From: Candidatus Peribacteria bacterium
Lineage (GTDB): Bacteria > Patescibacteriota > Gracilibacteria > Peribacterales > Peribacteraceae
Length of the DNA stretch: 64,000 nucleotides
NCBI GenBank assembly: GCA_041691135.1
Contig: JBEPVF010000001.1
Span: forward strand, 96,001-160,000
Reading direction: 5' to 3'
Part shown: piece by piece, positions 6,555 to 49,197 of the stretch
Numbering within the stretch: the first letter of the stretch is position 1
How the letters are laid out: every line of letters starts with the position of its first letter
Position numbers and translations under genes: made by a program
The notes under the pieces: model-generated
The model's input: the letters and a program-made list of their open reading frames with translations, nothing else
The model's database searches: none
What the model was told of the DNA's origin: nothing

Positions 6555-6650
6555 GATGTACCAGAGATGTAATAAATGTAGCTCTGCTCCTGTTCACTTT
6601 TTACATCTGCTTACGTTGTATTTACATCACATAATCCTCAGAGCGAAGGT

Positions 6651-21075: not shown

Positions 21076-21182
21076 GGCCGGAGTGTACCCGAGCAGTCAG
21101 ACGATGCTAAGGAATTTAAACTTGCCGGGTAGGTCATACAACTAGCGTCCACCTTCGCCAAGACTACGGTGGACACGAAGGT

Positions 21183-31281: not shown

Positions 31282-31647
31282 ATGTACGGCGCATTTCGCA
31301 ACTCCATCGGCTTCCTCAATGACATCCCCGATCATCTCTACCTTGATCTCGATCTGTCTGAATTTCATCTTCCTCACGGACGGATTGCCGCATTGCGAGA
31401 GGCACTCGAGATACTCTTGGGTCACTATGTCATGAGCTATGACTGCCATGTATCCCGGCGCGATCTTCCTCCTGCAAAACACCTCTGTGCTCATTACAAG
31501 GGCGCTGATCTGACACGCGACCAACGGGAAATTCTGAAAAAATTTGAGGCGGTCAGTCAGCCATTGGGCGTTAGCTTTGTCGTCTATCAAAAACCACTTC
31601 GTCTATTTTCCGATGCTCCAATTGCATGCAGAGGCTATAAGTTTTGA
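31282..31647 (+). CDS. Hypothetical protein
   Basis: ORF 7 nt downstream of the nuclease, co-oriented. Confidence 0.5.
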   Translation: MYGAFRNSIGFLNDIPDHLYLDLDLSEFHLPHGRIAALREALEILLGHYVMSYDCHVSRRDLPPAKHLCAHYKGADLTRDQREILKKFEAVSQPLGVSFVVYQKPLRLFSDAPIACRGYKF

Positions 31648-31649
31648 TA

Positions 31650-31681
31650 CTGTGCCACATCGCCGCAGGCGATTTACGTGG
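31650..31681 (-). repeat. tRNA-trailer palindromic element
   Basis: CCAcgtaaatcgcctgcggcgatgtggcacag, homologous to 49090-49123. Confidence 0.7.
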
Positions 31682-31772
31682 CGGAGAGGGGGGGATTTGA
31701 ACCCCCGATACGGTTTTAACGCCGTATACCGCATTAGCAGTGCGGCCCTTTCGACCACTCAGGCACCTCTCC
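31679..31772 (-). tRNA. tRNA-Ser(GCT)
   Basis: GGAGAGG..., CCGCA-CTGCTAA-TGCGG, long variable arm, CCA. Confidence 0.95.
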
Positions 31773-39494: not shown

Positions 39495-39634
39495 GGCCTC
39501 AACGATTTTTTTCTCATGTGAGAATCCGTTGGTAAGGCACCTGATATGGTCCGGTTCCAAAACTGGATCTCCTGACCAGGCACGAACGTCAGGAACCGGG
39601 GGCAGCATTACAGCTCACGCTGCCCCCATTTTTT
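39495..39634 (+). ncRNA. Candidate structured small RNA (unassigned)
   Basis: TTGACA at 39461; two stem domains; terminator GGGGGCAGC..GCTGCCCCC-ATTTTTT; no convincing ORF. Confidence 0.45.
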
Positions 39635-39716
39635 AGGAATCAAAATGGCTAGTAATACGTGGCCCGAGCGTCATAGAGCGAGGATCATGAGCGAGGCATC
39701 AGGGGGCGGAGTCGAA

Positions 39717-48595: not shown

Positions 48596-48865
48596 TTAAG
48601 AATCAGCAAATTTCTCTGCCAGATAATGAATAAGCTGTTTTTTTAAAAATTTCCATCCAGCGCCTCCCTTAAGAAATTTCTCTCTTCCTAGTGCATCCAT
48701 TTTATTTACATATGTCTCACAGTAGATGAGCTTCCATGCTCTCTCCCTTGAAGTCGAAACATTTTCATGCCTATTATGCTGTTCCAATCTTCGCTTCAAA
48801 TTGCTAGTAAATCCAATATACCATTTATCAGTGTCGACGCTTTCGATGACATATACGTGATACAT
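48596..48865 (-). CDS. Stand-alone GIY-YIG nuclease
   Basis: YVI.S..WYIG.TSNLKRRL.QHN..W.LIY.E..A..RE..LK; AT-rich. Confidence 0.9.
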   Translation of the reverse strand: MYHVYVIESVDTDKWYIGFTSNLKRRLEQHNRHENVSTSRERAWKLIYCETYVNKMDALGREKFLKGGAGWKFLKKQLIHYLAEKFADS

Positions 48866-49009
48866 AGATCCATTCTAGGACCGACTAAATATAAAAGTGG
48901 GTCATAAAAAAATTATAGAAAGGCATAAGTTTGTTTCGCTGTTTTCCGTTGCTGTATTAGACGTTCTAAAGCTATGAAGAACTGTCACTTTTTGAAACAG
49001 ATTTTATTA

Positions 49010-49123
49010 AAAGAAAAGCCACGGAAAATCGTTGCGCAATCGCGTGGCACGCAAAGCGGAAATGACAGAAAGTGCGTCGAAGGTTATGGCTGTGCCACGC
49101 GGCGCCGCAGGCGCTTTGCGTGG
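49010..49123 (-). repeat. tRNA-trailer palindromic elements between tRNA-Pro and the GIY-YIG gene
   Basis: CCACGC-aaa-GCGCC-tgc-GGCGC-c-GCGTGG; second unit GCCACG..CGTGGC-TTTTCTTTT; cross inverted repeats. Confidence 0.7.
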
Positions 49124-49197
49124 TCGGGGCGGCGGGACTCGAACTCGCGACCTCCTGGTCCCAAACCAGGCGCTCTAGCCAACTGAGCTACGCCCCG
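49121..49197 (-). tRNA. tRNA-Pro(TGG)
   Basis: CGGGGCG..., CCTGG-TTTGGGA-CCAGG, CCA. Confidence 0.95.

Follow-up and report, generated by a model that had tools for sequence, protein, structure and literature searches.

In a 64-kb stretch of the genome of a Candidatus Peribacteria bacterium (64,000 nucleotides (nt) of GenBank assembly GCA_041691135.1, contig JBEPVF010000001.1; hereafter the window), the genes for tRNA-Ser(GCT) and tRNA-Pro(TGG) run from their 3' CCA directly into a short hairpin unit. The hairpin is a repeat family and not a coincidence of two copies, and this family is probably one of small palindromic mobile elements anchored on the CCA, in which the largest form, the module, would be autonomous and would be mobilised by the GIY-YIG nuclease it encodes. 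The consensus of the unit reads CCA-CGYAAA, a variable stem-loop of 5-10 bp, and N-RCGTGG-CRCAG-(CCA). Three forms were distinguished: the single unit; a composite of about 100 nt consisting of a unit, a spacer and a mirror unit; and the module, where a nuclease gene (85-95 amino acids (aa), of the structure-specific UPF0213/SLX1 type) follows the composite at a distance of 50-220 nt.

Hairpin units at tRNA ends form a repeat family

All five tRNA genes predicted in the window with aragorn lie on the minus strand, and the trailers of three of them differ from the motif. The gene for tRNA-Ser(GCT) (31679..31772, minus strand; Rfam tRNA, 60.8 bits; CCA at 31681-31679) is followed by a solo unit at 31650..31681 on the same strand, CCA-CGTAAA-TCGCC-TGC-GGCGA-T-GTGG-CACAG, which matches the covariance model R1 described below at 37.4 bits (E 1.8e-7). 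That of tRNA-Pro(TGG) (49121..49197, minus strand; confirmed by Rfam tRNA; CCA at 49123-49121) continues into the left unit of a composite at 49087..49123, likewise on the minus strand, CCA-CGCAAA-GCGCC-TGC-GGCGC-C-GCGTGG-CACAG-CCA (61.3 bits, E 2.2e-14). Thus, in both tRNAs the CCA is succeeded by CGYAAA, a stem of 5 bp closing a loop of 3 nt, and GTGGCACAG; the bases before the CCA, read on the minus strand, are CTCTCCG in tRNA-Ser(GCT) and CCCCGA in tRNA-Pro(TGG). An earlier, sequence-only reading of this DNA had given these two continuations, the exchange of a T-A for a G-C pair in the inner stem, and an outer stem CCAC/GTGG which takes the CCA of the tRNA as its 5' strand, and all of these are present as described, on the minus strand. 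A second compensated position was found in the tRNA-Pro unit, namely a C/G pair in its outer stem CCACGC/GCGTGG (CCAC/GTGG in tRNA-Ser). The analysis went beyond that reading in three respects: the tRNA-Pro copy extends into a 105-nt palindrome, a GIY-YIG gene lies in the same block, and the tRNA-Ser copy is shortened, with an outer stem of 4 bp, 2 nt fewer than in tRNA-Pro, and without the trailing CCA. The latter copy is a degenerate solo unit.

The string GTGGCACAG occurs six times in the window, as compared with 0.30 expected, and 33 times in the genome. It should be added that four of the window sites (8449, 15262, 26166 and 43972) are situated outside any element.

The genome of the window (G000; a 1.74-Mb assembly of 35 contigs, 52.9% G+C) and those of relatives were searched with R1, built from an alignment (A1) of 43 copies that had been picked with a fold filter. 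R1 yielded 11 matches in G000 at E<=1e-3, every one of them in the trailers of eight tRNAs, and four weaker ones at E 0.015-0.49, with the right hairpin of the tRNA-Pro element among them. Altogether about ten tRNAs of the 51 aragorn calls in this genome have such trailers: Leu-taa, Ser-gct, Pro-tgg, Met-cat, Gln-ttg, Arg-tcg, Thr-tgt, Arg-cct, Ser-gga and Thr-cgt. Among 121 sampled genomes of the same family, G000 being one of them, 67 were positive, with 1-23 copies each, and 54, many of them at least 98% complete, had no match. Copy number is uneven even within a genus (23 in G113 vs 1 in G052; 11 in G000 vs 0 in G002). Outside the family, 5 of 150 genomes of the phylum were positive with one R1 match each, four of the five at a tRNA CCA. 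A strict pattern was matched in 8 of 24 further family genomes and in 0 of 16 from other families of the class. Furthermore, a pattern scan of the genomes of 185,579 species returned at least 120 loci, where about 270 chance matches are expected by our own arithmetic; among the matches listed, approximately half belonged to unrelated bacteria and the rest to records of the candidate phyla radiation (CPR), and 30 were placed exactly at an aragorn tRNA end. Most named public records that carry the element bear the label Candidatus Peribacteria or Peregrinibacteria, two groups of the Patescibacteria/CPR, and this is presumably the family of G000. No Rfam family matched the element at gathering score, and a relaxed cut-off of E<=5, applied to four element loci, gave no credible match either. 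A literature search found no description of such an element, which does not in itself show its absence from print; the passages of PMC4736985 consulted hold nothing on tRNA flanks.

In alignment A1, 98.9% of cells are paired vs 82% in shuffles, a statistic that is partly circular because A1 was selected with a fold filter; both-side changes were seen at all five inner pairs, and the outer stem is almost invariant, its sole double change being the C-G of the tRNA-Pro copy in the window. A fairer test was made on 66 units whose selection had taken no account of the inner stem. In these, the inner stem pairs at five of five positions in 54 units, at four in 5 and at three or fewer in 7, with 23 different stems represented, while the mixing of strands from different units gave full pairing in 14.9%. 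Covariation, the loss of which with more sequences would have refuted the sequence-only reading by its own statement, thus holds. Moreover, 22 of 49 left-type units have, within 150 nt downstream, a segment complementary to CACGYAAA and the first stem bases, and this distal segment follows the stem type (AAAATCGC occurs with GCGATTTT, AAAGCG with CGCTTT). Such distal pairing would fit a long-range RNA helix as well as a palindromic DNA element, and sequence alone cannot discriminate between the two. The case for the hairpin depends on recurrence and covariation, not on fold energy.

Placement was assessed on the same 66 distinct units, found in 55 loci and chosen by model score alone. Forty-two begin at a tRNA 3' CCA, in tRNAs of many identities, 11 are mirror units found 56-157 nt past a tRNA, and 4 abut the 5' end of a tRNA or transfer-messenger RNA (tmRNA) in reverse and share with that RNA its first two bases, the final GG of the unit. 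Consequently, 57 units (86%) lie no more than 160 nt from a tRNA/tmRNA end, and nine are elsewhere. One of the nine belongs to a complete composite within RNase P RNA, immediately after the conserved GUCCGGGCACCA, which resembles the 3' end of tRNA-Leu; two are at a tRNA truncated by a contig start, two are beside masked bases, one is intergenic, and three are in open reading frames (ORFs). Of the last three, an antisense unit lies in frame in a Mur ligase (locus L169; Pfam), which has gained 11 codons relative to its G000 ortholog (NWR-KAVPRGSEGAL-RG vs NWR-RG, the insertion boundaries being ambiguous by a few bases), another is in frame in a P-type ATPase right behind the DKTGT motif (L165), and the third is in frame in a third conserved ORF (L188). 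No known RNA was found at the odd contexts L165, L169, L172 and L188. In two loci (L007 and L184) the element occupies the spacer between two tRNAs, and the tRNA-Ser(gct) orthologs of five relatives carry differing trailers, so that the same tRNA has either the element or an unrelated trailer. The proposal of the sequence-only reading that an element inserts precisely at tRNA 3' ends hence stands in substance, given the 42 units at CCA, the 0-23 copies per genome and the copies in RNase P RNA and protein genes; the covariance-model search which it had called for found most further copies to be linked to tRNAs. The 3' ends are not the exclusive sites, and insertion itself is what we infer from these distributions.

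The same reading had offered, as its other option, a processing signal that masks the CCA in the precursor. In this explanation the trailer hairpin is an RNA signal selected by the host, which pairs with the CCA and guides or times 3' maturation (say, through a cut in the exposed AAA or through a double-strand nuclease acting on the long composite stem) or blocks premature use of the CCA. The exact position of the units, their fixed orientation relative to the tRNA and the covariation of the stem all agree with it, as does the retention of copies at one tRNA or tmRNA position in several genomes, where the stems differ yet are compensated (tRNA-Gln(ttg) and the tmRNA leader have such copies across genera, which could indicate host benefit). 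It is also true that unrelated trailer families of G000 form long stems starting from the CCA, namely the 12-bp stem of tRNA-Val(tac) and the class B trailers treated in the last section. However, a host function is hard to reconcile with the 54 of 121 family genomes that have no match and with copy numbers from 0 to 23; merely 8-10 of 47 tRNAs in G000 carry the element, and the stems from C74 are not enriched. Longest perfect stems of at least 6 bp from C74 were counted in 13 of 47 tRNAs vs 128 of 376 control starts (eight shifted starts for each), and only the element-bearing tRNAs and tRNA-Val(tac) stood out. Furthermore, copies exist antisense in protein genes and within RNase P RNA, where tRNA processing makes no sense, and a nuclease gene is linked to the element and moves along with it. 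A trailer-processing signal has no reason to be situated in protein genes or in RNase P RNA, and an insertion element therefore fits better; we consider the host signal quite unlikely, and the masking function proposed earlier is not supported.

Related candidates were dropped in the course of this comparison. A general masking of the CCA by all G000 trailers was abandoned in view of the missing overall enrichment, and so was a leader-trailer processing stem around tmRNA, since the leaders have a mirror unit and the trailers have no matching unit. As to an intrinsic terminator, what comes after the hairpin is CRCAGCCA and then variable sequence, with no T run (no terminator scan was made).

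The composite palindrome and its GIY-YIG nuclease gene

The tRNA-Pro copy extends from 49123 to 49019 as a 105-nt imperfect composite palindrome that folds into one long hairpin. Following the left unit on the minus strand, it comprises a spacer of 29 nt (49058..49086), the sequence of which varies among copies, a distal segment GCTTTGCGTG (49048..49057) that forms the complement of CACGCAAAGC in the left unit with the C/G change included, and a right mirror-image hairpin, CCACGCG...TTTTCCGTGG, ending in ...CCGTGG (49019..49047), which folds and closes the palindrome. The right hairpin is matched by R1 on the plus strand (C1:145019-145050, E 0.022). Beyond an A+T-rich spacer (48866..49018, minus strand) lies a stand-alone gene for an 89-aa GIY-YIG nuclease of the UPF0213/SLX1 type (48596..48865, minus strand), assigned by Pfam and by profile comparison with the PDB; it starts 256 nt downstream of tRNA-Pro(TGG) and 153 nt past the end of the composite. 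The full module, from the CCA of tRNA-Pro through the GIY-YIG ORF, thus spans 49123 to 48596. Homologous loci have hexamers similar to TACAAT/TATAAT right before the ATG (judged by eye; no promoter scan was made), and the spacer at 48866..49018 may contain a promoter.

Public contigs of one DNA run break within the tRNA-Pro element (49065-49147 of the window), as expected for a repeat, and assemblies of these genomes may be fragmented by elements of this kind.

The window protein is a bare GIY-YIG domain (PF01541, 54.6 bits vs a cut-off of 22.6). A profile of 25 relatives (A2) compared with the PDB matched 1zg2 (E 6.8e-10) and 1ywl (7.6e-6), both UPF0213, and 7wme, an SLX1 homolog (2e-4); PHROGs labels the domain 'homing endonuclease' weakly (E 1e-4). 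Public relatives are of 84-156 aa and, where named, are GIY-YIG nucleases of Peribacteria, Peregrinibacteria and other Patescibacteria. In proteins of 84-101 aa, each with one domain, no separate DNA-binding domain was found (a 'longer' length class was not searched).

The association with GIY-YIG genes, to which the sequence-only reading had pointed, was borne out. The 40 strongest tblastn matches of the window protein in the 121 family genomes (52-100% identity, 36 genomes) all have the unit just upstream. In 22 of them, an R1 match is located 48-218 nt upstream on the same contig; in the other 18, R1 matches at E<1e-5 between the upstream tRNA and the ORF, within about 300 nt, with an aragorn tRNA upstream in 17 of the 18 loci and the 18th truncated by a contig end. 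Modules were found behind at least 12 tRNA species, including Met, Arg-cct, Arg-tcg, Leu-taa, Leu-gag, Phe, Ala, Pro-ggg, Pro-tgg, Glu-ttc, Glu-ctc, Trp and Asp, and Gly in one of two variant loci (L241 and L242), the lower-identity genes of which follow an analogous yet different palindrome, CCACGAAG...CTTCGTGGCTCCGCCA. The same module was also present at four distant Patescibacteria loci (L047, L111, L209 and L211). Nuclease and unit vary together: the Glu-linked nucleases starting with MHIVY or MHVVY pair with CGTATA units (4/4), the main nuclease clade with CGYAAA units (15/15), and a third subclade with CGAAG (2/2). Moreover, one genome (G010) has two modules that share about 80% identity over the span between the CCA and the end of the ORF, with unrelated flanks on both sides; one is at tRNA-Arg(cct) and the other at a duplicated tRNA-Met 3' fragment downstream of an intact tRNA-Met. 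From this pair it follows that the copied unit is about 400 nt long, with the CCA as its left edge and its right edge near the stop codon.

Linkage of this kind would also be expected if only the whole GIY-YIG module moved, as a free-standing homing-endonuclease gene, with the palindrome as its cis part (such as an insulator, a site of processing between tRNA and mRNA, or a recombination site) and the units without an ORF as decay remnants that were never mobile themselves. The 40 of 40 linkage, the single copies in distant lineages, which usually carry the ORF (L209, L211, L047 and L111), and one ORF that is already broken, by a TAG at codon 5 (L234), are in line with this. It does not account for up to 23 units per genome vs one or two ORFs of this group, for the lack of GIY-YIG remnants beside the other element-bearing tRNAs of G000, or for the single 33-nt units in frame in protein genes, none of which can derive from a decayed module. 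We therefore think movement of the module alone unlikely.

In the mobile-element reading that we prefer, we infer the mobilising mechanism as follows. The module would be the autonomous form, and the units without an ORF would be remnants or copies that are not autonomous. In single-stranded or supercoiled DNA the unit would fold into a hairpin or cruciform, which the nuclease would recognise or nick, and copying would take place beside a CCA. The ends of tRNA genes would be favoured as the trailer is removed by normal tRNA 3' processing; an insertion at this point would be harmless for that reason, and the CCA ends of tRNAs may offer selfish DNA a safe place to land of an unusual kind. A bolder version, which we regard as tentative and on balance doubtful, is that the GIY-YIG protein of 85-95 aa, as a nuclease guided by structure, and its cognate hairpin constitute a previously undescribed transposon-like element of bacteria, in which a folded DNA unit is read instead of a long sequence, the element and its derivatives without an ORF are copied adjacent to CCA and tRNA 3' ends serve as near-universal safe sites. 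If true, it would be the GIY-YIG counterpart of the RAYT-REPIN and IS200/IS605 hairpin systems.

Several points weigh against a mobile element moved by its nuclease. The predicted folds of the window units contain the pairs given above, at -11.1 (tRNA-Ser) and -18.6 kcal/mol (tRNA-Pro), and beat shuffles by just 1.5-2.5 standard deviations with RNA and DNA folding alike; thermodynamics alone is weak evidence here because the z-scores are merely -1.7 and -2.4. To this may be added the circularity of the A1 statistic and the same-site copies across genera, both mentioned above. Neither an empty site, nor an insertion event, nor a target duplication could be defined: in the comparison of filled with empty sites between G113 (23 copies) and G052 (1 copy), flanks were about 70% alike and trailers were unrelated, and the genus mates of G000 gave the same picture. 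Contigs of one DNA run revealed no variant joint at either window element. The module has no right-end repeat, as similarity ends near the stop codon and nothing is conserved beyond. Thirty-one of the 67 element-bearing genomes, some with 16 copies, have no close nuclease relative (>=52% identity), and the nuclease is therefore dispensable for persistence of the element. Finally, the nuclease consists of the catalytic domain only, and we know of no GIY-YIG enzyme that moves a repeat of this kind.

Small GIY-YIG genes are also associated with tRNAs beyond this element. G000 has six of them: four lie 20-256 nt downstream of a same-strand tRNA, one is 1.36 kb downstream of a tRNA, and one is near a contig end. 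The five apart from that of the window (C3:14038-14247, C3:96322-96534, C1:92071-92292, C3:118938-119156 and C3:143953-144159) are about 40-45% identical to it, and three of these are 20-176 nt downstream of tRNA-Val-cac, tRNA-Gly-ccc and tRNA-Leu-cag. The link between minimal GIY-YIG genes and tRNA 3' ends is therefore broader than one element.

Comparison with known repeat systems

Among the closest parallels are the repetitive extragenic palindromic (REP) sequences and their REPIN doublets. They share with the present units the short imperfect hairpins, occurring singly or as inverted doublets (22 of 49 left-type units), and a structure that is kept while the stem changes. It may accordingly be proposed that the units are REP/REPIN-like sequences moved by a Y1 (HUH) tyrosine transposase of the RAYT/IS200 type, and that the GIY-YIG gene is a separate selfish gene homing beside them. 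The single hairpins and inverted doublets do resemble the REP/REPIN architecture; G000 has four Y1_Tnp genes, three of them RAYT-like; and Y1_Tnp is present in 55 of 67 element-bearing vs 25 of 54 element-free genomes, an odds ratio of about 5 in which related genomes are non-independent. Nevertheless, the three RAYT-like genes (C11:30499-30903, C5:61756-62229 and C1:268316-268753) are each flanked by their own, different inverted hairpin pair, one of which starts with GTAG, and no unit is nearby; these genes and their hairpins point to a separate REP-type repeat system in G000. Twelve element-bearing genomes show no Y1_Tnp, the near-complete G108 and G112 with 5-6 copies among them, and the covariation of nuclease subclades with unit variants speaks against a nuclease that merely homes nearby. 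Classic REPs are dispersed intergenically, in contrast to the 57 of 66 units near tRNA/tmRNA ends and the 11 of 11 in trailers in G000. Copy number, at 1-23, and the GIY-YIG instead of a Y1 partner separate the element further from REP/REPIN-RAYT systems, and we judge transposition by Y1 enzymes distinctly improbable.

Frames of about 1000 aa with a Y1_Tnp-like domain near one end were also noticed (G021:C37, G008:C22 and G018:C41), a size unusual for this domain.

Rickettsia palindromic elements (RPEs) are likewise small palindromic repeats which occur in frame in protein genes and are inserted in stable-RNA genes. RPEs are not known to prefer tRNA ends or to be linked to a nuclease gene, unlike the present element, with 86% of its units at tRNA/tmRNA ends and a GIY-YIG gene travelling along. 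No sequence relation is apparent, the comparison being one of features. A review by Delihas (PMC2229807) reports RPEs in tmRNA and M1 (RNase P) RNA genes. The Correia/NEMIS elements of Neisseria are also alike in being inverted-repeat elements of roughly 100-150 nt, which, if co-transcribed like NEMIS, would form long hairpins; NEMIS has TA target duplications and a general intergenic spread, whereas the left end of the present element is the CCA. The same review has NEMIS hairpins as proposed RNase III targets (PMC2229807).

Free-standing GIY-YIG homing genes agree with the module in their catalytic domain, variable presence and position beside tRNA genes. The seg genes of phage T4 are such free-standing GIY-YIG homing endonuclease genes, and SegB resides in the T4 tRNA gene cluster. 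The present protein differs in having only 85-95 aa and no DNA-binding extension, its nearest solved relatives being UPF0213/SLX1 and not of the I-TevI type, and in being accompanied by a cognate palindrome and many copies without an ORF. To put it concisely, the element behaves as REP/REPIN, RPE or Correia repeats do and its gene is similar to free-standing GIY-YIG homing genes, yet it departs from the defining traits of the known systems, with no RAYT flanking, no general intergenic spread and no DNA-binding domain.

Neighbouring features and implications

Between the two elements and their surroundings, several features of the window and related genomes may be recorded. A 121-aa ORF on the plus strand (31282-31647), for which Pfam has no match, is convergent with tRNA-Ser(GCT) and stops 3 nt from the solo unit. 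Class B trailers, a second family of tRNA trailers with TTCGRCTYGG... right after the CCA and containing CTCGCTCATGG, are found on the minus strand of the window at 39600-39716, 6560-6650 and 21140-21182. They are also present in G000 at C1:91896, C3:120510 and C11:5745, and their long forms pair back onto the CA of the CCA; further class B trailers occur after the tmRNA in L026 and ahead of two other small GIY-YIG genes. In the trailers of tRNA-Pro, tRNA-Ser and tRNA-Met at L151, L152, L207 and L223, which are loci of relatives, the last 12-20 tRNA bases including the CCA recur 85-150 nt downstream; between these repeats is a shared module GAYGAGAAG...CCTGAG, with a weak, sub-threshold match to the Rfam RtT RNA (24.9 bits vs 45), and the arrangement recalls, by analogy, the repeated tyrT trailer of E. 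coli. Finally, the trailer CCACGTCGCTCGCGAGCGACGTGG at L138 and L144 (the latter being the tRNA-Ser(gga) trailer of G001) is a perfect hairpin including the CCA; behind it, L144 has a unit of about 31 nt, GCGACGTGGCTCCGCCACGATCCTCACCAA, in three tandem copies.

For annotation of CPR genomes, the units have practical consequences: they make tRNA genes appear longer, split RNase P RNA, insert 11 codons into a protein gene and break assemblies. Small palindromic repeats such as REP, RPE and Correia are widespread, and for most of them the mover enzyme and the rule of placement are unknown. The present family has a sharp site (the base after the CCA, mostly of tRNA genes) and a constant minimal GIY-YIG partner related to the structure-specific SLX1/UPF0213 enzymes, in ultra-small bacteria with very small genomes, and so offers a concrete, testable model for the recognition and copying of a hairpin repeat. 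It would also show how selfish DNA can persist in streamlined genomes inside the stretch of a transcript that the cell trims off.

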